Shown here piece by piece: positions 25,073 through 49,441 of a stretch of DNA of 64,000 nt. The position numbers were made by a program, and so were the translations under genes. Below the pieces are notes generated by a model, which saw nothing but the letters and a program-made list of their open reading frames with translations, did not search any database and was not told the DNA's origin. The stretch is from assembly GCA_964187785.1 (NCBI GenBank), contig OZ076409.1, forward strand, positions 31,684,001 to 31,748,000, given 5' to 3'. Source of the DNA: Amphiscolops sp. MND2022. Lineage: Eukaryota. Position 1 is the first letter of the stretch; the number at the start of each line of letters is the position of its first letter.

Positions 25073-25074
25073 CT

Positions 25075-28000
25075 TTTCAAGTGACTAATGTTCATAAGCA
25101 CGTGATTGCACGCCATGATCCAGTAAGTATCGTTTGTCGTCTTAAGAACTCAGAGCTAGTTTGTTCACCCGGTTGACAAGAATTTGATGGTTGATAGAAC
25201 GCAATTGTGTCATTGATCTTCTGACAGATTGATGATCGAACAGACGTGATTTGAATAGGTCATGGTGCAGAGTCTTTTTGACATCTTTCTGAAATGCTTT
25301 CACACTCTGCTGCGAAGCCCCTTCGAACTGAATGCTATACAGCTTGGATCGTAAACACACAACTTCATTCAGAACCCTTCCTTGAAGTTCATCAGTCATT
25401 GTGAAGGGAACTTTCTTGTTGGACTTTTCTTGAAGAAAATGAAACTCGGGGTAATCAGATAAATCCAGGAGGTGTTTGAAGCCTTGCATTTACTCGTACA
25501 AGTCTTTCGTTTACATGCGATATAGTAGCGAATCAGTGTCTTTATAACACACTTTCAAACGATTACCTATCGAGGTTTCATCTCGTCGTAGTGGAAGCGG
25601 TAGAGACAGAGCTTTGAAAGGTCAAGTATTAAAGCACCCACCGGAGTTGGCTTTTCCCAAGAAATTTTGTTAGGAGAAAAGGTGACTGACATTAAATTGT
25701 CGTGGATGATCTGAAAGCCTTTAAAATTGGGTTTTTGCAAGTGCTTTTCAGCTTGCTTCCTACTACTGACAAAAAGTATTTCCCGGCGGTTGCGAAATTT
25801 TTCCATAGTTTTACCAAAGCAAGCATTTTTCACGAGTTTGTAGATTTTTTTCAAAATGATTCCCAGCTCGTTTCCTCATAACAGTGTTTTTGGATAATCC
25901 CCAAGCCACTTGTTTTGTCTAAACTGCAATACACGGTGCAATCGTTTCACTTTAGGACCATGCTTCAGGTAGATTTTCAGGTTTCTGTAGTGACACATAA
26001 TTGTTTATAAAATAGCGTCTCTGTCAACTTTTTCGTCGCATCCGAAGCGCTCCAAAGTTTCATTCCAAAGCCATGATAACCATGATTGTTGTATGGGAAG
26101 TTTCTCCGGTGCAGGAAGCAGATCATTGTGTTGATCACGCAGCTCCGGGGGATACTCAAGGTCAACTTCAACAAAAAATCCAAAATCAGAGTCGTCACCA
26201 GTGTTGAGTACCTCAACGAGAGTTTTTGTATCATTCCACGTGTAAGAATCGAGAGGAAGCATTTGCAGCATGGTCTCTGCATAAAGGGAAGTCACGTCAA
26301 AAAAGGCTCCGCCGTTTTTCCGCGACAAAGTCATTGAGGTCTTTTCTGTTGGCTACCAAAATGGCGAAGCTCACCAATGTAGTTGATGCCTCCACGGATG
26401 CCTCTTTCGCAAAACAAGAGCATATCGATATCTGTTAACAGACCAGGGTTGCTTTGGTTGTAATTAGCATTGCTTCCCATCTCAAATTCGGTGCCGAGAT
26501 AAAATGAGCAGGGTCGAAAGAGTAAACTTTCATACACACTCTCCTGAGAAGTTGGAAGACATCTGCTAAAACAAGTACATCAATTTCTAGGTATACGTCG
26601 TGATAGTCGCCCAGGGATTTGCATTGCAACAAGTTGTAGAGATTAAGAGCTTTTTTCACTGATCTTCTGTGACATCAATTTTTCCAGTCAAAGTGTTTTT
26701 CCAATCATCGCCATAAGCCGGTTGAGGTTGATTGAACTTTTCGAAAGAATGATGATAACTGTACGGGAAAAATCCTTTTTCAGAAAAGAGCGTCCAATGC
26801 ACCTGGGGATAGACTGAAGAAAAATGTTCTCTGAGAAGCGCAAAGTCCTCCTTCTTCAAGGTTTTAGCAAGAAAGTGCAAGCATTGAGTCATGACCAGAA
26901 AACTGTCCAGGAATCGCATTGCATTCGAAATTTTCACAATTTTACCTTTTTTTGTTGTGTATGATCCGACAAGGATGGAAACACTGGAAGAGATGTAGAC
27001 TTCATCGGTTCTAGAAATGGCCGACAAAGTCTCATTTGCTTTGAGGCTCAATTGTTTGATGATGTGATGTGCATCGTAACGGGAAAGATTTTGAGAGAAC
27101 ACCGGAAGAAAAGAAACCGATCGTGCTTTTAAGTTACATTCGGGATGTGCAACGCCGAATATATGACCTGTTAGATGGCAGTGATGAATCACTTTGCGAG
27201 GGTGTGCAATGTTATTGCCAGAAATGCAACAAGCAGTAGCTGCATCTGTCATCAACTGCTCTTGTTCTAGTTTGGATGTTTAAAAACGGATACTTTTGTT
27301 TTTCCACGTAAGCACAAGTCAATCAACCCCGCAATTTTTTCATCAATTTTCAATACAATCTTCTCTGTAGAATGCTTCATCCGTAATACTTTTGGTTCTC
27401 TTGTCGAAAAGAACAGCGCCAAAACTGGCTGGATATTGTCTTTCAATTTCGGTTGTGTTGGATGTTGATGCGCCATTTTCATCACATTTAACATCAATTT
27501 CTTCCAAATCAGCATACACAACGAAAGGGCACCATTGCGTTTTCTGCCAATTACTGGAAAATATAGTCTTCCCATCTTCGGGCATTTGTATCTCCACCGG
27601 CTTGTGCTCTTCACAAAACTCCAAGTGTTTTTGATAGTTTTTTTTCGCACAATCGGTTGAAAACAATTGCCGCAAAACTTGCTCTTGGGACATTTAAATC
27701 GCTTTCTTCGAGAAGTTCTTGATGAGACAATAGTGACTTTTTGTGTCCTTCATGGGCAACAGTTACTTGTTCTTCTTTCGACTTGCTCTGTTTTTGGACT
27801 GATAAACATTGTAGAGATTTTCATTCTCGGAGCGGTAAACTGTAATGGAAACATTATTTCGTCTCCCAAAAAAGCGTAATTAACTGAGACACATTGGAAA
27901 ATCTTGTATATTGAAGTCCAATCTTTCGAGCAAATGCATATAAGAAAAAGGTCGCTTACAGTGTTTCTTCTGAGGATACAATGCCGCGAAAACACAGTAC

Positions 28001-28882
28001 AGGAAACATAAGTCATCACTTTTGTTTCTATCATTCAGAATACTTCTTGAGAGCCCACTCAAAGTGGCAAGCGTTGGAATGAAGGATGAGCCCGATCGTC
28101 TCATGGGAGCTTCGACTTCGACTTCAACAGCAAGACGCGTGTCCACAACCCAACCGGATCCTCCAGAGCAATAAACTTTCTTTTGAGAGATTAATTGATC
28201 AACAAAATTGTTAAAGTCATCGTCCTGCAGTTCATGTCCCAATGGTTCCATTTTTGTATGGAAATACGCTATCACTGTCTCTCCCTCCAACGGTTTCAAC
28301 AGTCAAACGTGAATAGTAAGGCCAACTCTACTTGACTCATTGATTGGTAATTTGTTGTTGATGAATGATAGAATTTGTTTGTTGTTGGATAGTAAATATT
28401 GAAACGGTTCCACCACTGTTGATTCCAACTCCAAGCGATAAATTGTGCAAGCCGAATTGAGAGCTGTTTTGAAGCCAGATGTTTTTGCCGCCTCGTCAAA
28501 TTCAGATCTTTCAGCCTGAGTGCTATTGCTACCTGACTTGTACGAATGGGAATTGCTCATATGGTTATCAGGTGTTTCTCGATTTCCGAAAATACTCGTA
28601 CAGCAAACACATTTCAAATTGCCAGTTAGTTTGTGTACGTTCCTCAAGTGGCGAAGTAAATTGGATATGGAAATGAATTCTATACCACAAAGACCGCATG
28701 TAAACTTCGTGAGGGAAAGAACTGGTTCTTTTTTATGTCGACTCCGAATATGTTTTTTTTTCGAGGCAAAAGGTATACAACAATCTTCGCAACGATGCCA
28801 TCCTGTTTTCGAAAATAACTTTTTCTAGCTTTATGGAATCATTATATTTACTTGTCACATTTGGGGAAGATTTCATGACCAT
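25075..28882 (-). pseudogene. P1 protein-primed family B DNA polymerase
   Basis: N-terminal C2H2 fingers, GSGW...GSSFIP...D.LCFLYCV, exonuclease VYADLE, NLSRYDAH, FLDS, endonuclease-VII-like HHCHLTG...AHPECN, KGFFPYSY, RGG, DVTSLY, KLVKNACFGKT, DTDSL, DDKRY. Many frameshifts. Confidence 0.95.
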
Positions 28883-31332
28883 TTTTGAACGACAAAAACG
28901 GCTAGAAAAATTAGTGATTTCCGAATACGTTTCAACAAAAAATTGTTTGATAATTTTCAGTTAAAAGTCGAGATGATTTCGGTTATTCAATGTTCAAATT
29001 GGTAGGATATCATGAAAGGTTGTTCAGTTTTGTTCAATAGTTGGGTTATATAAGAAGTTTCACACCATGGTATATCAAGATTGAGAACGGAATATTGAAA
29101 CAAGAAAGAAATTTTATCTAGTTTGGACAACTCATTTTGTATCTAATTTGTCAAAACATCAAACAATAAATTCTCAATGTTTGAAAGTTTAGGATTCACG
29201 AATGGCTTCAAAGTTCGCCGATGAGAATGCATAAAAGAATATCAACTAAATTGTTAAAGTCATCGTCCTGCAGTTCATGTCCCAATGGTTCCATTTTTGT
29301 ATGGAAATACGCTATCACTGTCTCTCCCTCCAACGGTTTCAACAGTCAAACGTGAATAGTAAGGCCAACTCTACTTGACTCATTGATTGGTAATTTGTTG
29401 TTGATGAATGATAGAATTTGTTTGTTGTTGGATAGTAAATATTGAAACGGTTCCACCACTGTTGATTCCAACTCCAAGGGATAAATTGTGCAAGCCGAAT
29501 TGAGAGCTGTTTTGAAGCCAGATGTTTTTGCCGCCTCGTCAAATTCAGATCTTTCAGCCTGAGTGCTATTGCTACCTGACTTGTACGAATGGGAATTGCT
29601 CATATGGTTATCAGGTGTTTCTCGATTTCCGAAAATACTCGTACAGCAAACACATTTCAAATTGCCAGTTAGTTTGTGTACGTTCCTCAAGTGGCGAAGT
29701 AAATTGGATATGGAAATGAATTCTATACCACAAAGACCGCATGTAAACTTCGTGAGGGAAAGAACTGGTTCTTTTTTATGTCGACTCCGAATATGTTTTT
29801 TTTTCGAGGCAAAAGGTATACAACAATCTTCGCAACGATGCCATCCTGTTTTCGAAAATAACTTTTTCTAGCTTTATGGAATCATTATATTTACTTGTCA
29901 CATTTGGGGAAGATTTCATGACCATTTTTGAACGACAAAAACGGCTAGAAAAATTAGTGATTTCCGAATACGTTTCAACAAAAAATTGTTTGATAATTTT
30001 CAGTTAAAAGTCGAGATGATTTCGGTTATTCAATGTTCAAATTGGTAGGATATCATGAAAGGTTGTTCAGTTTTGTTCAATAGTTGGGTTATATAAGAAG
30101 TTTCACATCATGGTATATCAAGATTGAGAACGGAATATTGAAACAAGAAAGAAATTTTATCTAGTTTGGACAACTCATTTTGTATCTAATTTGTCAAAAC
30201 ATCAAACAATAAATTCTCAATGTTTGAAAGTTTAGGATTCACGAATGGCTTCAAAGTTCGCCGATGAGAATGCATAAAAGAATATCAACAAAATTGTTAA
30301 AGTCATCGTCCTGCAGTTCATGTCCCAATGGTTCCATTTTTGTATGGAAATACGCTATCACTGTCTCTCCCTCCAACGGTTTCAACAGTCAAACGTGAAT
30401 AGTAAGGCCAACTCTACTTGACTCATTGATTGGTAATTTGTTGTTGATGAATGATAGAATTTGTTTGTTGTTGGATAGTAAATATTGAAACGGTTCCACC
30501 ACTGTTGATTCCAACTCCAAGCGATAAATTGTGAAAGCCGAATTGAGAGCTGTTTTGAAGCCAGATGTTTTTGCCGCCTCGTCAAATTCAGATCTTTCAG
30601 CCTGAGTGCTATTGCTACCTGACTTGTACGAATGGGAATTGCTCATATGGTTATCAGGTGTTTCTCGATTTCCGAAAATACTCGTACAGCAAACACATTT
30701 CAAATTGCCAGTTAGTTTGTGTACGTTCCTCAAGTGGCGAAGTAAATTGGATATGGAAATGAATTCTATACCACAAAGACCGCATGTAAACTTCGTGAGG
30801 GAAAGAACTGGTTCTTTTTTATGTCGACTCCGAATATGTTTTTTTTTTCGAGGCAAAAGGTATACAACAATCTTCGCAACGATGCCATCCTGTTTTCGAA
30901 AATAACTTTTTCTAGCTTTATGGAATCATTATATTTACTTGTCACATTTGGGGAAGATTTCATGACCATTTTTGAACGACAAAAACGGCTAGAAAAATTA
31001 GTGATTTCCGAATACGTTTCAACAAAAAATTGTTTGATAATTTTCAGTTAAAAGTCGAGATGATTTCGGTTATTCAATGTTCAAATTGGTAGGATATCAT
31101 GAAAGGTTGTTCAGTTTTGTTCAATAGTTGGGTTATATAAGAAGTTTCACATCATGGTATATCAAGATTGAGAACGGAATATTGAAACAAGAAAGAAATT
31201 TTATCTAGTTTGGACAACTCATTTTGTATCTAATTTGTCAAAACATCAAACAATAAATTCTCAATGTTTGAAAGTTTAGGATTCACGAATGGCTTCAAAG
31301 TTCGCCGATGAGAATGCATAAAAGAATATCAA
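28198..31332. repeat. Three-copy tandem array, unit 1043-1044 bp (pPolB 5' end and upstream region)
   Basis: Units start at 28198, 29241 and 30284; only a handful of differences between copies; junction microhomology ATCAA. Confidence 0.97.
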
Positions 31333-31408
31333 GGATTCATATTTGGCTCTCTACCATATCAAGGATTCATAATTGGCTCTAACAGATCAAGGATTCATAA
31401 TTGGCTCT
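31328..31408. repeat. Three ~23-bp subterminal repeats of P1
   Basis: ATCAAGGATTCATA(T/A)TTGGCTCT occurs three times, about 50 bp before the ACTACT terminus candidate. Confidence 0.75.
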
Positions 31409-31879
31409 AAGCGCGTCTCAAGCATTCATGATTGTCTCTAAACCACCCTTTCCTTACTACTGTGATCCTTTATTCTCGCTTAACGGTTTTTTCCGGACTT
31501 TAAAAAACTTTAAAAAATACTTATATGAGGTAGCATTTGATGAAATTGTGAAAATTTCGATTAAAAAGTCGCAGAGCGCCTAAAAATCCAACGGCTTCAA
31601 AGAGAGTTGGGTCTCTTTGGTTTTCGTTTACTTCAGCGTACATTAGATTAAAATTGTCCATCTTGAATTCGAACACTCCCAGCCACGCACTCATCAACTA
31701 TGGCACTGGAACAGCTTACAGAAACTCAGAGAAATCTGCCAGTTCGCTGGTCTTAAAAAGCCACTACTATAGTCGAAGTTTTTTTTGAGAAATGAAATCG
31801 CACCATTACGACGATACGTTTTAGACTGGAAAAGTGAGGAAACCATGCGTTCTGTGTAATAGAGTCAGTTTTTTTATAG

Positions 31880-32259
31880 ATATGTGCCTTAAATGGAGGT
31901 TACTGCCCACAAGCTCTTCTAACATTGGGAAGCAGTACCCTCCCAACTGGGTGTGCAACAATAATCCTGATGCCCAGTACAACAGATGCAATGCCCCCGA
32001 ACAAAAGTTCTCGTTTCCACTCATTGACAGAAAAAAACTCAACAAAGATGCTGTTACTACTCCTCCGCCTGAAGATAAGCCTACAATAACGAAGGCTGCA
32101 GAAATGCCGAGTTTTGGAAGAACCATTCTTAGAAAACCAGATGTTTTGCCTCCGATGAGGATCTTCAAACCCAGTCCGTTACCTTTGTCAATCATTGGCC
32201 CCACCAAAGTGAACGAATCGCCAAAGCTACTAAACCAAACTCAATTACCAGCGAAAAGA
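31880..32259 (+). CDS. MORC2: MORC2-like gene, exon D (CW-type zinc finger and start of Pro-rich linker)
   Basis: ttttatag acceptor; the phase-1 join with exon C gives QC-D-MCLKWRLLP...YPPNWVCNNNPDAQYNRCNAPEQK. aga|gtacgt donor. AIQCD lacks the first Trp of the MORC3/4 WVQCD motif, consistent with the MORC1/2 type. Confidence 0.95.
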
Positions 32260-32818
32260 GTACGTTAGACTTTTGGATGTAATGATGGAGTTGCAACAAT
32301 TTCGAAGCTTGCATGGCATTTTATGTTTTCAAATTTGAGTCTGTTGGACATTTCTACCCGTTTATGATGAACTTTAAAACTCCTGCTAAGCCCTAGGAAA
32401 CCAGATTCATTAGCTGGGGAATCCCTACAATATAAAGTTTCGGAGTATGCCCAAATGTTTCGGCTTGTGTTGAACCACGGCGGCCATTTTCAGGGAGTAT
32501 TTTCTTTTTCAGGTTTAGAAAAAATGTTGCAAACTTTATCTGTGCTCAAGTGCTGGTGGGAAATTTCTTCGCAAAACTTTAGATGGTTTGAAACGGTTCT
32601 TTTTTTCAAAGGATATATAACTCCTTTTTATTTCTAAAAATAAAGAAAGTAATAGTCTCTCCATAAAATTAGTCATCCACATTTGGATATGTAGTTTAGT
32701 TATTCGAGTAAGTCAGTCATTTATCCAACTTCGTTGTCAGACAAATTTTTTCGTTGCTGTTATGAACTTCATTAACGTCATACGCTCATCTTTGTTCAAT
32801 AGTTTCAACCTGTTGACG

Positions 32819-32946
32819 TTGAGGGACCTGATGTTCTCATTCTTAGTGTAAAAAGAAATGACTGTTGTTGTCCTCCATGGAACATATGCATTCTAAAATT
32901 TCGAAAAACCTGGATACTGAAGAAACTCGAAAGTTGGCATTTCGTT
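32819..32946 (+). repeat. Left copy of ~130-bp direct repeat flanking P2 (right copy 42825-42954)
   Basis: TTGAGGGA...GTTGGCATTTCGTT occurs on both flanks with about 9 substitutions and one 2-nt indel. Confidence 0.92.
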
Positions 32947-34731
32947 GGCATTAGTTGGCATAGTAGTATGCGAAATGCCGATCCTGATATAAACAAAAAA
33001 ATTCAAGTCCGTCTAATCATTAGAAATTAAGCATTTTTCCCAAAACAAATCATCAAAATTAGGGTTTTTCACACCAAGCAACAAAAAAAAATTAAAGTTC
33101 GTATAATCATTAAAATTGAGCATTTTTCCAAAACAAACCATCAAAATTAGCCTTTTTTCACAACTAAAAAATAGCATCATGAAGCAAAAATTCACTAACC
33201 TCTATAGTGTAATACATTGTGTGCGGCCAGCGTTCAATGTGTGATACATTATTTGTGCAGCCAGCGTTGCAACCAGCGTTGCAGCCAGCGTTGCTGTACC
33301 GGAGGCAATGCAAATTGAAAATGAATAGTGGAAAACGCAAGTACCGGCGTATACGTTATTACCTCAGGTGCCTTCGGTGTTATTATATAACTAAAACTAA
33401 CATTGATTCTTCTCCCATGGCTTAGTGGTTATAGCATTGACTAAAGTTAAGGCTTCAGCCGGGGTGTTTGAGGTTCACTTCTAACCAACGTCCCCCAGTC
33501 TTTGTAATAACTTACATGCTATGGGAGAATAACCACCAACGGCACAGTTCTTAAAAAGGATGATCCCTGCTGTTGAAACTCTTAGTGGAACAGACTCACG
33601 ATGGGCTTTGATTTTACCATAGGTATGCCAATGCATATACCAATGCACATGCCAAAGCACATGCCAATGCACATGCTAATGAGCATGCCTCTGGGTTTTG
33701 CATTTTTAATACATGGGAAATCATTTTAGAGAAAAACGACAGGAACAAAAGTTGGAGAGTATTCACACATTTTACCGAAGCCGCTTTGCGTGTTCCTAAG
33801 GGTTTTGTGGATAATCAACCCACTAATTACTAGGTGAGAAAACACCCTGAAATACAGCTTCGCTGGCTCTGCATATATTTTTCTCGACTTTCTCGACACC
33901 CTTTTAACTTTTTCATCTCAATAAATGTCTCTTCATAAGTTTGGTTATTCTAGTGAACAGCTAAAACTGAGGGAATATCAGGAGCTAAAAGATATGATAA
34001 AAAGTCAAGAAAAGCTAGCCCAAATAACCCATTCCGTATTAAAAGTTTCGAGAATGAATTAGAAAATGAATCAGAAAACTTATCAGAAAACTTGTTAGAA
34101 AATCAAGAGAAATTAATAGAAGAAAAAATACTAGACCAAATACTAGACCCACAGGAAATTCAAAATGTTTTATTAAACTCAAAGTTTATCAATGATATTT
34201 ATTCCCAGTTTTCGGACCTTTCAAAAACCATGAATAAGTTAGAACAAAATATGAAAAACTCTTTCAACAAAGAACTGCTTTAATAAATGAAGTATTAGAC
34301 TTGATACACAAGAGTAGTTTTGAAATATTGACAGTCCGCAACTTAAAGTTTGTATCAACTGCGGGTCCAGCTGGAATGATTTTAAATGGTGATGAAATAA
34401 AAACTATTCTTAATAGTCTAGATCAAAATAAAATTACTGTAACTAACAACATAATTCAACTACTTTATGACAAAGGTTTTTTCGATTCTTTTCCCAATAA
34501 AGATCAAGCTTTTGCAAATTATCTAACTTTGAGTGAAACATTCTGATTGGAGAAGTATGGAAAAACAATACCTACTTCAGATGGTGAATATTATCTGTCT
34601 GATTTAGATTATTCTACCGGAGAAAAAATTTTGAGGTCATTGAAAAAAGATTCCTATATAGATATAGTTGATATGAAACACAGAATATATTAACACCAAC
34701 GGAAATGAATTTCGTTTTATATGAATGATAA

Positions 34732-35211
34732 ATGGAACAAAAACTCTATCCCTCAGCGCCCTATTTAAAAAGCGATGTAGAATCAATTATTAATAAGCAA
34801 TTAGCAAAAGTATCTAGTTTCAATAATTCTATTCAAAATATCATGATGATGATGAAATATTATGAAATGGAAGAAAAGAAATATAAGAAAAAATACACCA
34901 AATACAAGCTAATAAATAACCTAATTAACTCGACTTATGGTCTTGTAATAATAGGAACATATTCAGCATCCGTTACTCTAAGTAATACTGGTGTGGGCAT
35001 TATAGTTGTTCCAATCACTGCAGGAGTTGATTGTGCAACTGGTATTCTTGTTGAAATTTGTTCCAGTTATTTGAAGAAAAAGGAGCAAAATTATAAACTT
35101 AAGTACGCTATTATTCAGAAGACACTTGACGACTTTAGACAACTTCATGTCACTGGCCTAAAAGATTATCATATAAATGAAAAAGAATATCACCGATTTG
35201 TGAATATGTAG
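34732..35211 (+). CDS. P2 putative membrane protein (coiled coil plus Gly-rich hydrophobic hairpin)
   Basis: MEQKLYPSAPYL...YKKKYTKYK...GLVIIGTYSASVTLSNTGVGIIVVPITAGV. Resembles a recurrent Polinton accessory ORF; the stop at 35211 may be premature. Confidence 0.6.
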   Translation: MEQKLYPSAPYLKSDVESIINKQLAKVSSFNNSIQNIMMMMKYYEMEEKKYKKKYTKYKLINNLINSTYGLVIIGTYSASVTLSNTGVGIIVVPITAGVDCATGILVEICSSYLKKKEQNYKLKYAIIQKTLDDFRQLHVTGLKDYHINEKEYHRFVNM

Positions 35212-35365
35212 GAAAATTATCAATCACAAAATAATATTACAAACAAGCGTGATACAACAACATCAAACAGATTTTTTAAATGATTAATTTGTTCAATTTT
35301 AACATAAAAAGTAAAATTCATTGAAAATTATATCGCTATTAAATAGATAAGTTTATTATAAAAGA

Positions 35366-35584
35366 ATGGAGTATTGTAGAATTTGTAATTCTGATTATAA
35401 AAAAGCTTTCAAATCTGATCATTTGAAATCAGTAAAACATTTAGAAAAGTTAAATCAATATTATTCTAAAAAATGTAATACATTCATGCCCCTATCAGAT
35501 AAGTCCAATCATTTAAGTTCAAATGACCACAAGAACAAAACTAAACATCAGCGAATTTCGTGTGAAGATTGTGGTAAATATATC
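35366..35584 (+). pseudogene. P2 first, truncated copy of pPolB N-terminal zinc fingers
   Basis: MEYCRICNSDYKKAFKSDHLKSVKH...CEDCGKYI is a diverged paralogue of the sequence at 35958-36178. Confidence 0.8.
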
Positions 35585-35957
35585 ATTTTTGAGAAAAACA
35601 TCGAAACAAAAGTTGTAGAAAATCAACAGTTACACACATTTTAATTCTAACCTTTTTCTACAATCAACCCCCCCCCAATTACCAGGTGTAAAAACTGGGT
35701 TTTTCTGACTTCTCTAAATTGAGTCATCCTACTATACCGACTCAGGCGATCAAAGTTATAGACAATAACAAACTTTTTTCAAAAATAAAATTTTCCATAA
35801 CCCGAACCCAGCAATCAACACCTATCAAAACAGGTGTAAAAATGGGTTTTTCTGTCAAAACAGGTGTAAAAAAAGGTAAGAAAAATAGAAAATTTCCAAT
35901 TTTTAGAAAATGTATTCATAGAAAAATTTCAAACTATTTTTTCTTCATTGAATAGAA

Positions 35958-38951
35958 ATGGAGAATTGTAGTATTTGTGATTCTAATTATAAAAAATCCT
36001 TCAAATCTGATCATTATAAATCAGTAAAACATCTTGAAAAATTAAATCAATATCATTGTAAAAAATGTAATTTTTATATGCCCTTATCAGATAAAAGTTC
36101 TCATTTAAGTTCAGACCAACACAAGAACAAAACCAAACAACAACACATTTGGTGTGAAGATTGTGGTAAATATATATCTGATAAAACAAGACATTTCCAA
36201 AGTGAAATTCACAAAGCCCACGCAGCTTCGCGCACAGCTTCGCAGGCAGCTTCTTACACAGCTTCCCACGCAGCTTCCCACACAAGTCTGCACTTTGGTC
36301 AAGAGGTTGAAGTAATTGTGAATGAAAAAACACATTAAATTGAAAGTAAATCCAACCGAAAATCCCGAACATCACATAAATGAACTACTAAATGGAAATA
36401 ATTTTTCCCGATATAAATATCAATTGAGTTGTTTAGCTAAGTTTTCAAAATACATCAACGGAGAAGAAAGTGTATTTCACAAATGGGTTAAATCAGATTT
36501 TAATTACAATCACACATTCCCTGATCATACAATTCACAACACATTAATGCAGAAATTAGATGATGAACAATTAGAAGGATCAGGCTTTGTGGTAAACCGT
36601 ATTGTCAATGTTATATTAGAAATATATAAAGTCAATGATATTCAAGCTTCTTCATACATTGAGTTGCCAGAAAAATATAAGAATAATAAATCAATTATAA
36701 ATATAAAAAATAATGATCAATTTTGTTTATGGTGCATCATAGCATATTTATATCCCGTTGAAGACAAAAATATATATATCTGATAAAACAAGACATTTCC
36801 AAAGTGAAAATCACAAAGCCCACGCAGCTTCGCGCACAGCTTCGCAGGCAGCTTCTTACACAGCTTCCCACGCAGCTTCCCACACAAGTCTGCACTTTGG
36901 TCAAGAGGTTGAAGTAATTGTGAATGAAAAAACACATTAAATTGAAAGTAAATCCAATCGAAAATCCCGAACATCACATAAATGAACTACTAAATGAAAA
37001 TAATTTTTCCCGATATAAATATCAATTGAGTTGTTTAGCTAAGTTTTCAAAATACATCAACGGAGAAGAAAGTGTATTTCACAAATGGGTTAAATCAGAT
37101 TTTAATTACAATCACACATTCCCTGATCATACAATTCACAACACATTAATGCAGAAATTAGATGATGAACAATTAGAAGGATCAGGCTTTGTGGTAAACC
37201 GTATTGTCAATGTTATATTAGAAATATATAAAGTCAATGATATTCAAGCTTCTTCATACATTGAGTTGCCAGAAAAATATAAGAATAATAGATCAATTAT
37301 AAATATAAAAAATAATGATCAATTTTGTTTATGGTGCATCATAGCATATTTATATCCCGTTGAAGACAAAAAAATATAACTTCAAAATATACTATGTATT
37401 TACCTACTTCATGTACCGAAGGTTTAGAATTCGCTATGAAAGTTAAAGATTTTCCCAAGTTCGAAAACTTAAATAATTTAAACGTAAATGTTTTTGAACT
37501 CACAAATAGTGTGCTAACACCAATCCTCATTAACGAAAATTACTTACAATCACAAATAGAGTTGCTGCTTTTTGAAAATCATTATTACCTAATAACAAAG
37601 TTGCATTGTCTAATAAATAAAAATTCACGCATGAAATGGGTGAAAAGAAGATGTTTAACAGCATTTAGTTCAGAACAAATTTTTTTCGATCATACATCTC
37701 GTTGTATAAATCAACAACCAACTAATATCACATTCAGTTATAAGGATCACTTAAATTCGAAGACTACCACATGAAGCTACCACTCCCAATTAGAGTATAT
37801 GCAGATTTCGAAAGTATTAATCAACCCACAAGAAATAATGATTTCAAAGTATTATTTAAACGAATTCCAATTGCAGTAGGATTTTATCTAATAACATCAT
37901 CTGGAAATTGTTATTACTAATAATTCGGCGAAAGCTGCGTAACATGGTTTGTAAATGAAATGTTGACACTAGAACACGAAGCGAACAAATATTTTGAACA
38001 ATACTCCTCTTAAAATGGCCCCCGAAAAAGAAGAATCATTTCAACAATCCAAAGTGTATTGGCTTTGTGAAAATCCACTTGGTGATACGCAAAGCGCTTC
38101 GGTGATAAAGTTCGAGGTCATGATCATCTTACAGGCAAGTACCGAGGAGCAGCCCATAATAAGTGTAATTTAAATTGTAAAAAAGTCATCAAGTTATGTT
38201 CCCATGTTTTTCCACAACCTTTCTGGGTATAATTGTCATATTATATTTGAAGAACGCTTAACAAAAGCTTACAAAATGGGGTATGAACCAAAAATAATTC
38301 CAAAGTCAATGGAAAATTATGTATCAATTCAAGTAGATGTTTAAGATTTTTAGACTCATATGGTTTTCTTAGTAGTGGTTTAGATAAATTAGTTAAGAGT
38401 ATAAACAGTTTCCCAATAATGGATTCCAACAACTTTGGAGATGAATTATTCAAAAAGAAATTGGCTTATCCTTATGAATACCTAACACATAGTAATTTCA
38501 ACGAACCATTGAATCTAACAAAAGAAGTCTTCTGGTCAACACTAAAACAAACAACTCCACCAGATGAAGAAATTAACCGAACACAAGAAATTATTGAAAA
38601 ATATGATATAAAGAACGGACAAGAATTAACTATGTTATACTTAAAAATGGATTTCCTCCAATTAGCTGATGTATTCGAAAACTTTGTTTAGAAGTCTACA
38701 CTTGAATACAGCATCAATCCTTTGTATAGTTACTCTCTACCTGGTTATAGATGGAAAGCTGGTTTGAAGATAAACAAAATCAAATTAGATTTCATAAAAG
38801 ACAAAGAATTATTACTACTACTTGAAAGTAATATACGTGGAGGAATTTCAAGTGTAATGGGACCTCGTTACATTGAATCAGATGAAAATACACAACTTTT
38901 ATACATTGATGCAAATAATGTTTATGGATGGGCACTGAGTCAATACCTTCC
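35958..38951 (+). pseudogene. P2 protein-primed PolB, 3'-truncated by LINE
   Basis: Three C2H2 fingers, EGSGF...SSYIELP...NNDQFCLWC, HYYLI, VYADFE, HDHLTGKYRGAAHNKCN, FHNLSGY, FLDS, AYPYEY, IRGG, YIDANNVYGWALSQYLP; polymerase motifs B and C are missing. Confidence 0.93.
36168..37378 (+). repeat. 602-bp tandem duplication inside P2 pPolB
   Basis: ORFs at 36322 and 36924 are near-identical (offset 602); junction microhomology AAATATA. Each copy includes a 12-bp minisatellite encoding HAASRTASQAASYTASHAAS. Confidence 0.95.
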
Positions 38952-41900
38952 ATAGGAGGAACTATTCAAAAAATAGCAAAGTAAATCTAAATTCGACTCC
39001 AACTTAAAAATTTTTTTTCTAAACGTCAGGGGCTTGAAAAATATAACAAACTTGAATATACTGCCTGAGGTAGTGAAACATTTCGATGTCGTCGGCTTGG
39101 TTGAAACACTGTCAAATAATTTTGACAAAACATACTTTGATAGCTTCGATGTTTATACTGGTAAAGACGAAAATAAGCTAAAAGGTTTCCACGGAATGGC
39201 GCTTATGGTGAAAAAAACACTACAACACAAGTTTTTTTGGAGAGCGGCTCAGGGTTTTGGTTTGAAATAACAAATGCAAATCTCTGCTATGGCATAGGTC
39301 TCTTTTATATTCCATGTGAAAATTCGAAATATTGGCATCAGGAACTTTTTGATTCAATAGAAGAAGTTACCCAACATAGATATGCTAATGAAAATGTAAT
39401 CATACTTGGTGACTTTAATGCTAGAACGGGCCTACAGCCCGATTTTGTATCATTAGATGAGAATGATTCACTGTTTCAAAACCGTGCTAATGCGGACAAA
39501 AAAGTCAATAACAATGGCCGACGTCTAGTCGACTTATGTAAAACTTGTGATATGCTAATCGTAAATGGACGAGTTGGTTCGGACAATAATATAGGCAATT
39601 ACACCTGTACTACTTATAATGGAAAAAGTACGGTTGACTATGCTATAGCAGATGCGAAAACAATTACGAAAATATATTCGTTTGACATTCTCGGTTTTGA
39701 CCCTAGCTTGTCCGACGTTCATATGTCAATCACAATGAACGTCGACTTCCGAAACAAAACCGTCGCGGAAGTGAGAGAGCATCTCCCAAGAACAAAAGTT
39801 AGAAAATGGAATGAAAATATCAGGATTAAGTACCAAGAAAAATTAAGTATAAGATTAGCGAGCGGTGGTTTTGTGCCAGAAATCGACCACGAAACCGATC
39901 TAAACTCTTTCAATGAAAAATTAAAACAAAGTTTAACAGAAATTGCTACTGAGGTAGGGGCGCTACGAATGAAAAAAAACAAATGCGCAGAAATGCCTGG
40001 TTCGATAAAGAATGCGAAAATGCGAGATCAGAATATCGCAGAGCAATAAGACATACTCTACTGACTCATCTCAAAAGATTAGCCTTGAAACAATATAGAT
40101 CTATCATAATAGATCCAATAATAAACGGACAGAATATCATACGCAAGTGAATGACGAGTTGCGGAGCTTGTGTCAGTCAAATACGCAGCCTTTTTGGTCA
40201 AGACGGAAAAACATGGAGTCTGTGGAAAAAGCGTTGAGCATTGATCTCGAAAACTTGACGCAACATTTCATTAGTCTGAATCAAGCCCCTGATATTAATG
40301 ACTGTCCTAATGAACATGTAGTAGTTAATAATGATGATCAAATGTTAACTGACGATTATTTATGTTTTCTGGATAGTCCTTTTGATCTAAAGGAAGTGCA
40401 GTGTTGCGTTAAAAAGTTGAAAAATGGCACATCAGCTGGTCAAGATAACCTTTTTCCGGAGTTGTTCAAATATGCACCCACTGATTTCTATGTGCTACTT
40501 ACTAATTTCTCAATGATATACTAGAAAAAGGCCAGATCCCGGATGAATGGGGGTTATCTATAATCTGCCTCATTTACAAGAAAGGACAAATGAGTGATCC
40601 TAACAACTACCGTGTAATTTCACTTATTGATTGTTTAGCAAAATTCTTCACAAGATTACTTTCTGACAGAATACAGCAGTTCCTCGACTCAAAATTAATC
40701 ATCGGCGAGGAGCAAGCTGGTTTCAGACCGAAACATTCATGTATGGACCAAGTGTTCGCTCTTTTCAACATCATTAATTGGTACGTTACAAAAGGTAAAA
40801 AATTGTTTGTCATTTTTGTTGATTATGAGAAGGCGTTCGACCGAGTCAATCGTATGTATCTATGGCAAAAATTACTCGCGAGTGGCGTGAAAGGGAAAAT
40901 TTTGAAAGTAGTCGAAAATCTGCATCAGAAAACCAAGGCCTGTGTACGAGTGAATGGTACCACATCGCAATATTTCGATTGCATGATGGGAGTAAGACAA
41001 GGCGACACACTTTCGCCATTGCTTTTTACCATTTTTCTAAATGACTTCAAAGACTTCATTAGCAACTATACACGGGGACTCAGCCAAATTGCATCTTTAG
41101 AAAAGTTATGTGAGCGTGAGAGCGAGCTTTTCGAATCTCTGTTCGTTCTGCTTTACGCTGATGACACAGTTCTACTGAGTGAAACCGGAAATGACATGCA
41201 GTTAATGATTAATGCAACAGCTGACTACTGTAAAAAGTTTGACATGATTATCAATGTAGGTAAAACTAAATATGATTTTCTCGAAAGGCAAAATCAGGAA
41301 ATTGTCAACGCTATATATAAACCAAACGAAACTAGAAAGGGTAGATAGTTTCTGCTACCTTGGCATAATTTTCAAGTACAACAATACCTTCCAATTATCA
41401 ATACAACACAACATTGACAAAGCTAGGAAAGCCCTATTCAAACTCGGTGTAACAATTTCAAAATGTCAGATGCCGATTGCTCTACAGTTGTATCTGTTTG
41501 ACTGCCTTATAAAACCGATCCTGCTTTACGGGTGTGAGATTTGGGGAATGGAGAATTTTGAAACAATAGAGGTATTTTTATCGCAATTTTTTACGGCGCA
41601 GATTGAAACTAAGGAGACACGTCCCAAAACCAATGGTGTACGGTGAATTCGGAAAAAGCGAATTGACTATACAATATGGCAGAGAATGGTAAATTTTTGG
41701 AAAGGACTAACAGAACCGGAGAACAAATTGTCTAACTTAATGCTGAGTAAAAAGCTATTTGATCAGCAGGACAAATGGAACATCAAAATTAAGAGCATTC
41801 TTATATCTTTAGGTGTACCTTATGTTTTCGAACACGTGGAACTGATATCTGGAAACCAATTAAAAGAGTTTACTAACAAAGCCACTGAAGAAATTGCCGG

Positions 41901-42397
41901 GCATCTGTGGTGCTGCAGCATTAACTCGAATTCTATTACTGACATATATCGCACATACAAACATAAACTACAGATAGAGTGTTATATATCTACCCTTAAA
42001 AAAGGGATGCGATATCTTTGAGTAACTTCCGTTGTGCAAGCTCGACGTTACCTGTAGTTAGAGCTAAATTTGGACAGCTTAGCTTAGGAAAATGCCCTTT
42101 CTGCAGCCTACAAACGAAAAGCGACGAATATCATCTTTTACTCTGCAATCACTAAGACTGATCGCCAGGCATTAATCGATGCATGTTCTTACATTAAACC
42201 AAATTTTTACGAGCTTGACCAGCTGATGAATTGTAAATCGGCGAAAAAACTGCAAAATTTAGCCAAATTTTGCCGAACAATTCTTGAAACTTGTCAAAGC
42301 ATTTAAATGAATGATGTTTGATTTATGTTACTACTTTTTGTTACAGTTTATACGCCTTGATGTCAAGGCCAAAACTGATAATTTACTTCTTCTTCTT
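38952..42397 (+). mobile_element. LINE retrotransposon (APE endonuclease + RT; RTE-X-like by C-terminal motifs), frameshifted
   Basis: FLNVRGL, LVET, LGDFNARTG, STVDY, SDVH (APE); NYRVISL, QAGFR, FVDYEKAFD, GVRQGDTLSPLLF, YADD, YLG (RT); PILLYGCEIWG; CPFC...DEYH; 3' (CTT)4 tail at 42386-42397. Confidence 0.95.
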
Positions 42398-43395
42398 GGT
42401 TAGAAGTGAACCCCAAACACTCCGGCTGAAGCCTTAACTTTACTCAATGCTATAACCACTAAGCCATGGGAGACGAATCAATGTTAGTTTTAGTTATATA
42501 ATAATAACACCGAAGGCACCTGAGGTAATAACGTATACGCCGGTACTTGTGTTTTCCACTATTCATTTTCAATTTGCATTGCTTCCGGTACAGCAACGCT
42601 GGCTGCACACATTATGTATTACACATTGAACGCTGGCTGAAACGCTGGCCGCACACATAATGTATTACACTATAGAGGTTATTGAATTTTTGCTTCATGG
42701 TGTTATTTTTTAGTTGTGAAAAAAGGCTAATTTTGATGATTTGTTTTGGAAAAATGCTCAATTTTAATGATCATACGAATTTGAATTTTTTGTTTATATC
42801 AGGATCGACATTTCGCATACTACTTTGAGGGAGCTGATTTTCTCATATTCTTGGTGTAAAAAGAAATGACTGTTGTTGTCTTCCATGGAACATACGCATT
42901 CTAAAATTTTGAAAAACCTGGATCCTGAAAAACCTCGAAAGTTGGCATTTCGTTCAATGGAATTGCTCAATTCGGCTCCGAAGGTGTATAATTTTGTTTT
43001 TAGAATTTAATTTCAGTTTCATACCTCAACCGTTTTAAAACAGTTTTGAACGTTTCGTGAAATAGCCCTGTATAACCAAAATAAACGTTGTTAGTTTTCA
43101 ACGGAAATGTGTTGAGTAAAGTGTTGGAGAAAAATTTTCAATTAGTAAATGCCGAGAACAATTAGATGGATTCTTTTACCTGTTGTAGGTTCGTAAAAAG
43201 GATAATATATTCAAGTATCAATCAGACCAGCCCTTCGGACACACTTCCAATTGGCTACTGAGGGGTCTCATTCCCTAGGGAAATTAACATGAAGTGGTCT
43301 TTTCAGTGGAGAAAAACTGGTCACAAACATTTACACATTTGAAAGGAAACGCCGACTAAAAACAGGTTGCGAAGTGTGTACAAATGAATAATTAA

Positions 43396-43940
43396 CCCTA
43401 AATGGACCATTGGGACGTATACGTCCCAGTTAGTTTCTGCAAACTTTTGAATTAACCCTAAATGGACCATTGGGACGTATACGTCCCAGTTAGTTTCTGC
43501 AAACTTTTGAACGAACCAGCTGACCGTATGGTAAAGAAAACTCTCGAATAAGATTTTCAGACAATATTACATAGCATTGCATGCCTTTTCACGGAATATT
43601 GACATGTCTCCAAAATCAAGAAAACGGGACGCGCAGATTTTCCGTTTTTTCAGTTTTCGTTTGTGGCCGCTTTATCCCACTTGTATCAAGATTGGGTCAA
43701 AGTGGCCATAGCATGTTTTGAAACATGCTGAAATGCAGTCAGAAACACGAGGCGTGCAAAGTTTTGGCGCAAAGTCCGGAGCCATTGCGGCTTTCACAAA
43801 AATCAATTTGAAAGCCCTGATTGTCTTTTAAACGCCCTATGAATCTTTTGTCGGACTTGAATAGTTCAAGAGATATTGCGCTTGAAAGTTTAAGCACCAG
43901 ATTTTTGGATGAATCCGGAAATTTCCTTGTCCATTTAGGG
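43396..43940. mobile_element. piggyBac-like non-autonomous element
   Basis: TTAA-CCCTAAATGGAC...GTCCATTTAGGG-TTAA; the left 60 bp are tandemly duplicated (TTAA at 43392 and 43452). Confidence 0.85.
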
Positions 43941-44215
43941 TTAAGGCTTCCTCACGTCACATTTTGAAAAGGTGTAAACTTGAATTGGTAGTGTTAAAAG
44001 TAACTCAAATGGAAAGTGTTGACATACTTTCAAACACTAATTCATTGCCTAGATATTGCGGTCATTATATCGAAAAGGCCTTTTTGTGGGTCACCAAGTA
44101 ATATAACAACTTGTAAGAGTTGGTGTTTGAAAAAACGTTGAATGATATAATGATACGATTGTAATAAAATTCGAACTTTGTCTCATTTTGTGCTGTAACT
44201 GCGTTTTCATTGTAG

Positions 44216-44413
44216 ATCATGACGGTGGATGAAAGCCTTCCTGCTGCCACTATACCAAAAAATGTCAACAAAAGCAGGAAAATGAAATCGCCTTCTCCTG
44301 AGCCTCCTCCGAGGCAGAAGTCATCGAGTCGAATTCAAGCTGCAGCTGTCAAAGAAAAAGAAAAGGCTTTGCCTCTACGGCGAAAAAGCCCGACTCCGCC
44401 TCCTAAACCAAAA
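44216..44413 (+). CDS. MORC2: MORC2-like gene, exon E (disordered Pro/Ser/Lys-rich linker)
   Basis: ttgtag acceptor and aaa|gtgagt donor, 198 nt, phase 0 on both sides. IMTVDESLP...KSPSPEPPPRQK...RRKSPTPPPKPK. Low complexity, so assigned by splice sites and phase. Confidence 0.75.
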
Positions 44414-46439
44414 GTGAGTTTTACTGAACAATCAATCCTGTTTTGGAGATACTGTTACATGAGTAGTTGTGGTTGATATACCCCATGAAATAGAAGGGAG
44501 TAGTGAAGAAAACCGCCGGGTTTGCAACGTGGTAGGGTTCCCACGCTGCCAACGGGATTGGATTCTTCCATAAAGGACATTTAGGAGCCGCTCCTTTTGG
44601 ATTGAATTTCATTCGGCGGTCCGAATGAATGTCGGAATTGATTCGGCGCTCGCGAAAAACGTCCTTTTGCCTCTTGGAAATTGTTTAGGATTCGACGCTT
44701 GAAATGAATGTTTTTTTCCGAATACATTTCAAAAGCCTATCGAATTATAAAGTTCATGTAGGAAAAGCATAGATATTTTTATTTGAATGAATGTCTTCAA
44801 TGTTTGCAAGAACTAGCCTTGACATTTTGGTGCAAATGAATATGTAACATGGTGGTGGATTAACTGGTACTTTCAAGTCTTTCGGCGGTTGGAATGAAGG
44901 TCGTGAATGCCCGTGAAAACAAACGTCGATTCTGCAGTCGGAATTGATTCGGCGCTTGAGAAAAACGTTCATTGGGTTGTCAGAATGGTGTCGGCGTTCG
45001 GAAAAACTATTCTTTCAGAGCTCGGGAATACTTCGCTGCTCGAGAAAAATGTTCGTTTTAATTCAACACTCGGAATTTTCCTTTCTCGAAGAAAAGCGTT
45101 CCTTTTCATTTGGCGGTGGAAACTCGATATACAAGTTGTTCGATTTATCTTTCATTTGAACGTTTTATTCGAAGCTGAATTGTTTGCTGTTTTCGAAGAA
45201 TGGTTCAGACTGGAAAAGAAGAATGAAGTCAAAAGAAATAGATGTGATCAAAGTACAAGTATTTTACAGATTACCATTTGGGAAAACTGACATTTTTGAA
45301 ATTTATCGAAACTTTGTGATCAGCTTTTGCTTAGTTCAACAGAGAAATACAAATTTGAACCTTACTCCAGAACAATTACAAAAATTGGTAAAGGAACAAC
45401 TGGAAATCAGTTGTGGGTGTTTATCCAAGTATAGTGAAGGTTGCAGGCTGCTTGTAATTGCTCGTGACGCACAAAAAGTTTTTGAAACTTTTTTGTGACA
45501 AGGGTAACTGTTTGGACAGAACCAAATTCCAGAAATGCCGGCAAGCTACACTTCTGTCACTCTGGAGCATTTTGAGGTTGAAGTTTCCCGAGCAGTCACA
45601 TTTGTTCAATGACTTGAAGGGTTGAGTTAAGAATCGGTGAAATGAATACAAACGCCAATCAAATATGCCTGTCGTTGACTCCTCAATTCAGTGTCTGTTT
45701 GTCACTATCAAATAACAGTCACTGTATTACCCTAACCAAAGACGAGTACATTGCAGTTGGTGATCACAGGGTTACAAGAAGAGGTGTGATAACTTAAATG
45801 TATCAGATTATTACCTACTGAAATCAACGTTTGGTGTTGTGGACGCAGGAATTTTGGACAGAGTATGTCAACCGAATCTGCGACACATGAGACAAAACTT
45901 CCAATGATGAAAAGAAAGTTACCACCTCTCAAAATACCCCTAATTCAAAAACCCCTGATCCAGTGGAAGTTCCCAAAGAACATCCTAATATTCCTGAAAC
46001 AAATCAGGGAAAAGAACAAAGTCCCTAGAATTTGGTACTTTTGTGGATTTGGTAAAAGACGTCCATGCTTCAAAAGCGATTTGCAGAGTGACGATTCCTT
46101 CATTCTTTTACACACATTCAAAGAATTCAATTGCTTCCAACAGTAAAAAAAACGATATTAACTTGTGCTTGCTTACTTTTGTATATTAATTTTCCTCTTG
46201 GGAACGAAAGAAGAACGGATTTCATGCTTCAGCTTACCTTAATTCCTCAACATTGTCAAACAGGAAAAAACAATTTTGTACAAGAAACACATTTTGTGAG
46301 CGGTACGAAATAATCTATAATCTTTAGTATTCAGCATGCTGGTTTGATTGATTTGTAAAATCAATTCACTTACTTTATCAAAACCCTTTTTAAATCATGT
46401 AGTCAGAACCAGTTGACTCGCCCGACGCAATAACTAGTT

Positions 46440-46676
46440 ATGAAATTATTTGCGATGAAAACAATCTGGAAAGACTTCCTCGGAAGTTTTGTAATTCCAC
46501 AAAAATACCAGGAAACTCAGTTTGTGTTTTTTGTTCACACGATTTCAGTATTCCTTCTCATATCAGTTTGCTTGCTAAAGCTATTTTTCTATGAAGTACT
46601 CTGCGAGGATATGCCATTTTGGAGTTCACTTTTGGGTGGTGCAGTTGGATTTTTGATACCTGGTCGAAAGCTTTGA
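46440..46676 (+). CDS. P3 small membrane protein upstream of ATPase
   Basis: FVFFVHTISVFLLISVCLL...FWSSLLGGAVGFLIPGRKL; two hydrophobic helices, homologous to the P1 ORF at 11585. Confidence 0.65.
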   Translation: MKLFAMKTIWKDFLGSFVIPQKYQETQFVFFVHTISVFLLISVCLLKLFFYEVLCEDMPFWSSLLGGAVGFLIPGRKL

Positions 46677-46912
46677 ACAAGATTATTTTTACAGCTCTCA
46701 AAGTTTTCATGCCTAGTTGGTCCGTCTGGGTCTGGAAAAACTCGACTAATTTTCTCAATGCACACCAAAGATTTTTTATCCAAGGTTCAACAAAAACTAA
46801 TACTTTACAGAGACTTCCGACTTAATTTGAAGAAAGTGGAGAAAAAGATGACTATTGAACGTTTTAAATGTCTCAATTTCGAACTGATAAAGACCCTTCA
46901 GGACTGTAGTCC
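46673..46912 (+). pseudogene. P3 packaging ATPase N-terminal fragment
   Basis: LVGPSGSGKTRLIFSM Walker A motif; remainder deleted. Confidence 0.8.
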
Positions 46913-47729
46913 CATGGAAAAATTCACTTCACTTCAGCAGCAACGATTTTTAAAGTACTGTGGAAAAGAGTTTCTGAATTTCTGTTCTGAATGTGCAATC
47001 GATATTATAAACTGTACGGTACCAGTTGATTTGGAGTTACAATTTTACAAGCCACAGCTCTAACAGCTCTGCAAAAAAACCTACTTCCAATCACTAGCGT
47101 AGAAAAATCTGGTGTCCAAGAAAGGTCTCAAAATGTTGAATTGGATTTCTCGTCCTTGTTTTTGTTATCTAACAAATTGATTTTTTGTGATGAACATCCA
47201 GGAGTCCATATTAATACCAAAAGTTTCTACATTAAAGAAACAATTCAACCTTACAAGTTTTGAAATATTGAGAAGTGGAGCAAAAGACCAAATCACCGAC
47301 TTCCAACGAGGAAACACCTTTCCACACACTGTAACGACAAAACCGGAAGAATAAATTTTCACTGAAAGTTTTGTAATTACTGGATATGCTTACAGTTAGA
47401 GACTAGGAACAAAATTTTGATTATAACTCAGCCTCTGATTCAGTTGATTTTAACGACTCTGGTGAAATAACAGTCAACAAAAACTCCACCAAAATTCCCC
47501 TCAACACTTCTCTACAGCCTACAACAACCAAACAAAAACTTGACTGATCTCTCATACTCCCTCATCCCAAAGGAATTGAAATTGAATAGTAACTTGGTAC
47601 CCAATAAAAAAGCCAGTAACTTTTTGAACCCTGAAGTGATCACAAGAAACAACTTGAATCAGATGCCAGCGACACAGAATTTAAAGGTTCCAAAGCGTCT
47701 GGATCGAAAGACTGAACAACTCTCGTGAG

Positions 47730-48628
47730 ATGGAAGAACAACGTTGGAAAAACTTTACACACAGGGTGCAGTTGCATATGGTAGTGTACAGAGTTTGAAA
47801 AATGCAAGCACACTACCAAAAAAGAAGATGGAAAAGGTTTTAGCGCAAACGAATGCCCATACGAAGGACGCCTAGAACAAAATTTTCTCCTCAGAGTTCA
47901 AGCCTACAGATTTAATAAATTTGGTCAATAGATAATGCCTATATCGATAAAATAGCCAGATACAATAATAGTGTAAAATATTTACTAGTTGCAGCGGATG
48001 TACTCTCACGTTTTTTTAACGAGTTCAACCAATGAAAACGAAAACGGCCGTCGACACAGCCCGAGCTTTTAAACGAATAATCTCCAAGGATTTCCCCAAA
48101 AACGTTTGTCGACAAAGGCACAGAGTTCAAGGGCTAATTCAAACATTTTGTGAGTCTAAAGGAAGTGAAATCTACAATACTCACAGCGAATCAAAGTCTG
48201 CTTTTGCTGAGCAAAATCTTCGTTCTCTAAAGAAATCATTTACAAGCATTTGGAAAAAAGAGGACTTATTATTACATCAACAAACCTCAAAATTTTGTTG
48301 ACATTATTAATTCACGTGTCAACAGAGTGTCTTGTTTGGCTCCGAAAAAAGTTGAAAAGAAGCATACAGCTCATCTAGTTTCTCTGACAAATGTCATTCT
48401 GTTACCGAAATCAAAATTCAAAGAGGGGATCTTTTGAAAGTGACAAAGGAAGATTTACCATTCAAAAAAGGCTACAAGCAAAATTACACAGACGAAGTTT
48501 TTCTAAATCGATATAATTGCTACCCTCAATCCTCCTACATACAACCTACAAGACTCGCAAGGAGAAAAACGTTAGGAAAATTTTACGAAGAAGAAATAGT
48601 TTTGGTTCGGAAAAATGGACGAATTTGA
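47730..48628 (+). pseudogene. P3 retroviral-like (rve) integrase
   Basis: WSIDNAYIDKIARYNNSVKYLLVAADVLSRF, MKTKTAVDTARAFKRII, KSAFAEQNLRSLK, FKKGYKQNYTDEVF, GKFYEEEI; frameshifted. Confidence 0.92.
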
Positions 48629-49440
48629 AATTCATTTATTATCCACTGCCTCAATGGGTATTTTTGAAACACACTAGCATCATTCAAAAATCACCTACAT
48701 CAAAGCATTTTCTTGGATGGTGATTGACGTGCGGCTCTATCGGAATGTATTTTCCCATCTCACAGATTTTTTCTTTTATGTACATGAAAAGCAAATGAAA
48801 AATGACGTCAGTGAAAGCTCTGCAGAAGAAGACCGAGAATGAAGAGGAGAGAAATAGGTGTACATTACACTAAAAAAATACAGCTGTGATACAAAGAGTA
48901 TGACAGTTTTCATTCGTTACTATTTGGAATACGTGAGCTTCTTCCATTGCTCCTTGAGGTTAGTAAAAATCAAACACGAGGTGGCAAAGTTGAAATCAAA
49001 ATTGATGCCAATGCCTGTTTGACGTTTCCGACCGGGAACATTCCAAACCTACTGGGTTTCAAGAGAAAAAAGACCCCATTTGTCTTTCACATCGGCAATG
49101 AAGAGTTATCAATATCTAGAGCACTTGTACCAGACTATCCTTTTGACTTACGTTCCGGAATTACGTTTTGGTTCACACGGAACTGATTGATTATCAGAAT
49201 ACTGGAGATGTGAAAGCACCTGTACTACGAATACTGGATAGTGGAAAACGCACAGAGAACGAAAAACCTTGACTTTACAAAGCTTGCAGACAAGATCATT
49301 TTTTGATTTGCAATACAAAAAACTGTGGGTTCAAAACATTCAATCAATAAGCATTCAACTTGGAACAAAAACGGGTAACCTTGTTCCGTTTGTTGGAATG
49401 GGTAAGGTAGTATCAACCCTAAAATTTGAAACATTTGCGT
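48615..49440 (+). pseudogene. P3 minor capsid protein
   Basis: MDEFEIHLLSTASM...RAALSECIFP...PNLLGF...YPFDLRSG...LIDYQNTGDVKAPVLRI; broken frames. Confidence 0.75.
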
Positions 49441-49441
49441 G

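Follow-up and report, generated by a model that had tools for sequence, protein, structure and literature searches.

A long host duplication flanking a decayed Polinton in an acoel MORC2-like intron, with junctions that suggest a one-ended integration

A MORC2-like gene and its repeat-laden introns

Judged by its exons, the window analysed here (the whole stretch of 64,000 nt) is a MORC2-like gene of an acoel. The gene spans positions 5320-62488, its exons map in order across the window, and its S5-domain exon is 90% identical to the MORC2A-like sequence of Symsagittifera roscoffensis. The MORC2 family is known for transposon silencing. The introns of this member carry several decayed Polinton remnants, at ~12000-25000, at 25000-31300 (with a polymerase on the minus strand), at the element described below as P2, and at ~46000-56600.

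P2 occupies a single intron of this gene. Upstream of it, an exon encoding a CW zinc finger (31880-32259, plus strand; Pfam zf-CW, E 5e-12) aligns by tblastn with residues 505-632 of the S. roscoffensis MORC2A-like protein at 77% and is followed by a GT donor at 32260. The next exon (44216-44413, plus strand) is preceded by an AG acceptor at 44214-44215 and aligns with residues 644-699 at 59%. The splice sites thus delimit a GT...AG intron of 11,956 bp on the plus strand (32260-44215), which contains a left copy of a duplicated host sequence (D1), then P2, then a right copy (D2). The flanking exons are in frame on either side of this one intron, and therefore the duplicated sequence, called D hereafter, is intronic and both flanks belong together; no additional exon within the intron is needed by the related protein. 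A join between two unrelated loci, or a chimera of them, was considered and is ruled out by the collinear MORC2 exons. The genome of a related acoel is given as ~70% repetitive (PMC6451197), so that the intronic place of D is no proof that it is single-copy.

About 14,400 of the 64,000 bases (~22%) lie in long tandem arrays, and TRF returned 38 rows for the window, short reiterations being common here without any integration. Between 15086 and 25150 there are six tandem copies of a 1.5-1.7-kb unit that includes part of a capsid-like gene from a Polinton remnant; compared over stretches of 300 nt, the copies are 78-100% alike. At 28198-31441 stand three tandem copies of 1,043 bp, 99.7% identical, which represent either a recent duplication or an assembly artefact; where this array meets the DNA of the host intron, it closes with about four reiterations of a 28-nt motif. 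The intron of P2 also harbours a short element (43390-43946) with TTAA-CCCT...AGGG-TTAA ends, which we take to be piggyBac-like; its left terminus occurs twice over, as a perfect 60-bp tandem pair, and is a second terminal duplication within this intron. Further upstream, a palindrome with 77-bp arms (11834-11994), partially copied 11 kb upstream (750-820), is probably a small non-autonomous element, and at 3650-5150 the minus strand encodes a BED zinc finger within a decayed element, probably a transposon of the hAT type.

The decayed Polinton P2

P2 is a decayed Polinton/Maverick of 9,863 bp (32962-42824, plus strand), recognizable by its TIRs, its end motif and its polymerase gene. The left TIR (32962-33488, plus strand) starts with AGTAGT at 32962, and the right TIR (42396-42824, minus strand) ends with ACTACT at 42819-42824, as a previous reading of the sequence alone had stated; the termini are hence of the (AG)n or (AGT)n type, in the form (AGT)2//(ACT)2. 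The TIRs are long (~430-527 bp) and differ by 17 substitutions in 412 aligned positions and by five indels. Reiterations of 12 and 24 nt are present inside them, short reiterations distinguish one TIR from the other, and a tandem repeat of ~88-90 bp in the left TIR is missing from the right one.

The polymerase gene (35366-38970, plus strand; 60-83% identity to relatives) is broken by stops and frameshifts, by a duplication of its 5' part and by a 602-bp tandem duplication at 36170-37373. It is cut off near residue 810 of ~1,250, where a broken LINE starts. Its assignment to the protein-primed family B polymerases comes from its relatives, the P2 fragment by itself having no Pfam match: 775 of 2,898 candidates are related at E<=0.001, the best being 82% identical, and PF03175 was found in one of the four relatives scanned (P0124, which also has an endonuclease VII match). 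The LINE (38963-42395, plus strand, its 5' edge approximate) encodes an endonuclease and a reverse transcriptase (Pfam PF14529 and PF00078, with a weak PF03372). A 3' stem-loop and a short CTT tail, presumably the 3' end of the LINE, adjoin the inner end of the right TIR; the LINE thus abuts that TIR where the remaining Polinton core is absent, and no TSD of its own could be seen by eye.

No retroviral-type integrase was detected in P2, either as a Pfam match or as a match to the integrase-like fragments of the neighbouring remnants, and no packaging ATPase, protease or capsid gene was found in it. The ATPase- and capsid-like fragments of the neighbouring remnants match each other, not P2. The integrase was likely lost where the LINE now sits. 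P2 is a defective copy that has long been decaying, at a locus that has been rearranged repeatedly since the insertion.

The TIR terminus had no match in metagenome contigs; four viral contigs matched a 16-mer of it, with a homology that ended at 17-18 nt and is put down to chance, and a polymerase relative used as the query found no locus in viral contigs. Inside the window there is no second Polinton with both ends and a TSD that could serve as a control. An isolated 126-bp fragment of the left end of a related Polinton (62615-62740) is 83% identical to 33389-33515 and reaches 27 bp beyond the TIR.

The flanking duplication and the two junctions

The sequence-only reading had proposed that P2 is flanked by a direct repeat of host DNA in place of a 6-bp TSD, and alignment bears this out. 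D1 (32819-32946, 128 bp, plus strand) and D2 (42825-42954, 130 bp, plus strand) are 91.5% identical (E 5e-49), with nine substitutions in 128 aligned positions and one 2-nt indel. The first base of D2 directly follows the ACTACT that ends at 42824, so that the right copy begins precisely at the terminus of the element. The 5-8-bp TSD expected of Polintons is absent, as was also claimed: with shifts of up to 6 nt allowed at either end, P2 is flanked neither by an identical 4-5-mer nor by a 6-9-mer carrying one mismatch or none. A long host duplication adjoining the element, of 128/130 bp, is what a one-ended integration would leave.

D was presumably single-copy before the insertion. No third copy exists in the 64,000-nt window, and apart from D the two intron flanks share no homology longer than 10 nt. 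A 27-nt core of D had no match in metagenome contigs or in prokaryote genomes, and a 60-aa open frame across D2 and its flank had none among 1.84 billion proteins, which does not amount to proof that D is single-copy. Three other identities for D were tried and rejected: no frame of it matches the related protein as a MORC2 exon would, the flanking exons joining in frame; no Rfam family matches within the intron; and no TIRs of a larger element were found to straddle P2.

Could the repeat simply have been created by the assembly, through a haplotype switch or a mis-join? We regard this as very improbable. Some of the nearby arrays, at 99-100% identity, could themselves be artefacts, but D1 and D2 differ at nine sites and by one indel, the filler described below occurs as such nowhere else, and the collinearity of the gene is unbroken by the element.

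The two junctions are asymmetric. At the right, element and host meet bluntly, without filler: the element and the host bases preceding D1 have no terminal base in common, and nothing is inserted. At the left, the end of D1 is followed by a 15-nt filler, GGCATTAGTTGGCAT (32947-32961, plus strand), and only then by AGTAGT. The filler had been described as reiterating a local motif, and it does so: it can be tiled from two segments (6 + 9 nt), both of which occur in the last 15 nt of D, an arrangement equalled by 38 of 1,000,000 random 15-mers. The left junction is one of three places in the window where three copies of an 8-mer lie within 35 nt, and five simulated sequences contained none. An insertion templated within ~20-30 bp of the junction is what theta-mediated joining produces, and the filler is of this kind; polymerase theta was probably involved, as far as a junction pattern can tell.

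One clean end and one host-repaired end are what would be expected if the integrase had acted at the right only. A rather different origin would involve no integrase: a staggered break would have captured a Polinton genome in its free linear form, host repair joining both ends. Both termini are intact, the filler looks like a product of repair, and a 9-nt homology to be described next could have guided the capture. The right junction, however, is blunt, has neither microhomology nor filler, and coincides exactly with the start of the duplication, as expected of a strand-transfer joint. Alternative end joining (alt-EJ; PMC2943611) can also leave blunt joins, and the capture of a free genome is accordingly improbable without being far-fetched.

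Near the end of D lies a 9-nt stretch, GGCATTTCG (32936-32944, plus strand, and again at 42944-42952), which is the reverse complement of positions 10-18 of the left TIR (32971-32979). This match, like the intronic setting and the loss of the core at the place of the LINE, goes beyond the sequence-only reading. A match of this length to the left terminus is reached by 0.11% of 53,883 control windows, a post hoc figure; the right TIR differs at one of the nine bases, which leaves a 7-nt match of the sort reached by 2.6% of control windows, again post hoc. The orientation of the match is inverted, so that it could act only by way of a fold-back step; a further 9-nt match to the terminus, lying at 43147 in direct orientation, was left unused. 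The filler's last 4-5 nt can also pair with TIR bases immediately inward of the terminus: its final four are complementary to the four next to AGTAGT on the inner side, and this 4-mer occurs at 7 of 1,950 intron positions by a count that was likewise post hoc. The inverted 9-nt match and the 4-base fold-back may link the breakpoint of D to the free end of the element, a connection made post hoc. As template for the filler, either the host end or, through fold-back, the end of the element could have served, or the two by turns.

D1 and D2 have diverged by 7.0% (95% CI 3.3-12.9) and the TIRs by 4.1% (2.4-6.5), that is 9/128 vs 17/412 (Fisher P 0.23). The repeat and the insertion would thus be compatible with a single age. 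The duplication is nominally the more diverged of the two, with a probability of 0.08 of at least nine differences in 128 positions at the TIR rate, and D1 may be older or derived from another allele.

This nominal excess is one of several observations that would suit an origin in which the repeat has little to do with integration. An older tandem duplication may have covered the site, with a later deletion up to the left terminus that removed the TSD and the intervening sequence; or else two insertions of the same family, 130 bp apart, may have recombined into a hybrid with a "pseudo-TSD," models of a sort discussed for HERV-K (PMC5488345). With ~22% of the window in long tandem arrays, duplications are plentiful, and the LINE and the missing core mean that the two halves of P2 could stem from different copies. 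Against this, two or three independent events would be required, with a breakpoint falling exactly at the terminus; a filler folding back on the TIR is not predicted; the intron flanks are otherwise devoid of homology longer than 10 nt; and the order of the exons excludes two unrelated loci. Taken together, these points make either version unlikely.

Possible routes to the duplication and their parallels elsewhere

We lean, with a confidence slightly better than even, towards a one-ended integration, in which the integrase joined the right end only and host repair, by synthesis-dependent end joining, joined the left end ~130 bases further on. Several observations speak for this mechanism: a short TSD is lacking, and the first base of D2 comes directly after the terminus; the right junction is free of terminal microhomology and filler; the filler tiles from two local segments; the breakpoint sits at the 9-nt inverted TIR match while the filler folds back on the TIR; the divergences of D1/D2 and of the TIRs are compatible; and both flanks lie in one intron, in the right order.

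The course of events, every step of which is our reconstruction, would be as follows. First, the integrase would have attached the right 3' end to the target ahead of D, which would account for the blunt junction; the left end would have stayed free and intact. A host polymerase, probably polymerase theta, would then have carried out short rounds of primed synthesis and release between the left end and the nearby TIR-like host stretch, with the 15-nt patchwork filler as the product. Stable annealing would have followed, and fill-in or recombination would have copied D, which would thereby have come to stand on both sides. In the subsequent decay the LINE would have been added, the core with integrase and capsid removed, and D1/D2 and the TIRs allowed to diverge.

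A number of points count against one-ended integration. Truncation is frequent at aberrant retroviral ends (PMC5041404), but P2 has an intact left terminus. The D1/D2 divergence is nominally above that of the TIRs, the locus has been repeatedly rearranged within a duplication-rich window, and P2 retains no integrase. The homology tests, moreover, are post hoc, the match is inverted, and the direct match at 43147 went unused.

The aberrant or one-ended integration put forward in the sequence-only reading stands in part: the predicted asymmetry, blunt at the right and templated at the left, is present, but the sequence would be identical if a normal insertion had later suffered a break at its left end and been mended there. 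In that event P2 would have been inserted with a 6-bp TSD and a break would have occurred at the left terminus; the host end would have copied ~120 more bases from an empty homologue, or by a template switch across the TSD, before end joining with filler restored its link to the element. In worms, duplications of 100 bp to 10 kb with templated insertions arise when an end is extended on a sister or homologue and then sealed by theta-mediated joining (PMC8654963). Such a repair would account for the intact left end, allelic divergence could account for the slightly higher D1/D2 distance, and the window is full of tandem duplications. It nevertheless requires a second event, with a break exactly at the terminus and no loss of bases; in the literature examined, the re-cutting of integrated Polinton ends has not been demonstrated, excision being only one option in a model. 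On balance, repair after a normal insertion is unlikely, though it deserves to be taken seriously.

If P2 arose by one-ended integration, would similar copies have been noticed? The case for Polinton integration is built almost wholly on the 6-bp TSD. The published lengths are 5-8 bp for Polintons (10.1101/2023.08.22.554363), with 5-6 bp for mavirus, 1-9 bp for EMALEs and TSD-like repeats of 7-23 bp for the tyrosine-recombinase PLVs. Surveys of Polinton-type elements have looked at 6 bases of flank (10.1101/2023.08.22.554363), at perfect 6-bp TSDs (PMC8097293) or at 50 bp, and with 6-50 bp of flank all three, as their methods are described, would have missed a 130-bp duplication. A perfect 6-bp TSD together with the end motif was reported for 628 of the 2,863 candidates with inverted repeats (PMC8097293); in the survey with 50-bp flanks a TSD was given for 57/97 and 179/305 integrase-type elements, which leaves many without one. 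A search of titles and abstract openings, and of the TSD passages of Polinton, PLV and virophage papers, turned up no report of long flanking duplications at Polintons; the supplementary TSD tables (PMC12220804 S4, PMC8547959 file 1) may contain cases.

A bolder proposition is that host-completed integration is a regular Polinton route, and that TIR-bearing copies recorded as having no TSD hide a sizeable class with long duplications and templated filler, their breakpoint set by homology to the element's own terminus. We hold this to be doubtful. If true, Polintons would continually supply the host with small duplications, and one could read from their junctions how a genome capped by a terminal protein becomes linked to a chromosome.

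The P2 locus suggests that Polintons fail and get rescued as retroviruses do, one old copy being too little to establish the mechanism. This would be a known failure mode of retroviral-type integration, seen at one old locus in what is, as far as found, a new class of element. The integrases of Polintons and of HIV-1/ASLV belong to the same superfamily.

Like other Polintons/Mavericks, P2 has the end motif, TIRs of several hundred bp and a protein-primed polymerase (PMC8097293; 10.1101/2023.08.22.554363), and such elements are abundant in a related acoel, Mavericks making up 4.5% of the P. naikaiensis assembly (PMC6451197). In vertebrate Mavericks the (AGT)2//(ACT)2 motif accompanies 6-bp TSDs (PMC8097293). 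P2, unlike these, carries a duplication of 128/130 bp with filler where a 5-8-bp TSD is usual, has no integrase, ATPase or capsid gene that could be found, and measures only 9.9 kb, of which one third is LINE.

The left junction has its counterparts in DNA repair. SD-MMEJ, for which work in flies has found a link to polymerase theta, leaves fillers with direct and inverted repeats as its loop-out and snap-back products (PMC2943611), and a patchwork filler with direct and inverted local repeats is common to P2, to SD-MMEJ/theta joining and to abortive-SDSA duplications (PMC2943611, PMC8654963). The size of the P2 duplication also falls inside the range of 100 bp to 10 kb given for abortive-SDSA tandem duplications (PMC8654963). 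Contrary to P2, both processes are described at breaks without an inserted element.

Among retroviruses, HERV-K (HML-2) offers a natural germ-line parallel: it too is inserted by an integrase of the retroviral type, 6 of its 451 putative TSDs measure 61-450 bp (PMC5488345 Table 2), a range that includes P2, and it shares the "pseudo-TSD" ambiguity. It differs in being an LTR element, in having sequenced empty alleles for two of the long-TSD cases, and in its fillers, which measure no more than 2 nt or consist of a 7-nt viral remnant (PMC5488345), whereas that of P2 is 15 nt long. The mechanism preferred here is modelled on the aberrant one-ended integrations of HIV-1 and ASLV. These proviruses have one normal end, and the other most commonly adjoins duplicated host DNA, hundreds to thousands of bp long, usually with short homology and possibly with several appended pieces (PMC5041404); a normal end opposite a host-joined one, with long duplication and templated pieces, is likewise the pattern at P2, where the short homology is a post hoc candidate. 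The retroviral cases are experimental, were induced by drugs or mutants in RNA retroviruses and often have a truncated aberrant end, whereas P2 presents, in a single fossil from which its case is inferred, a left end that is intact.
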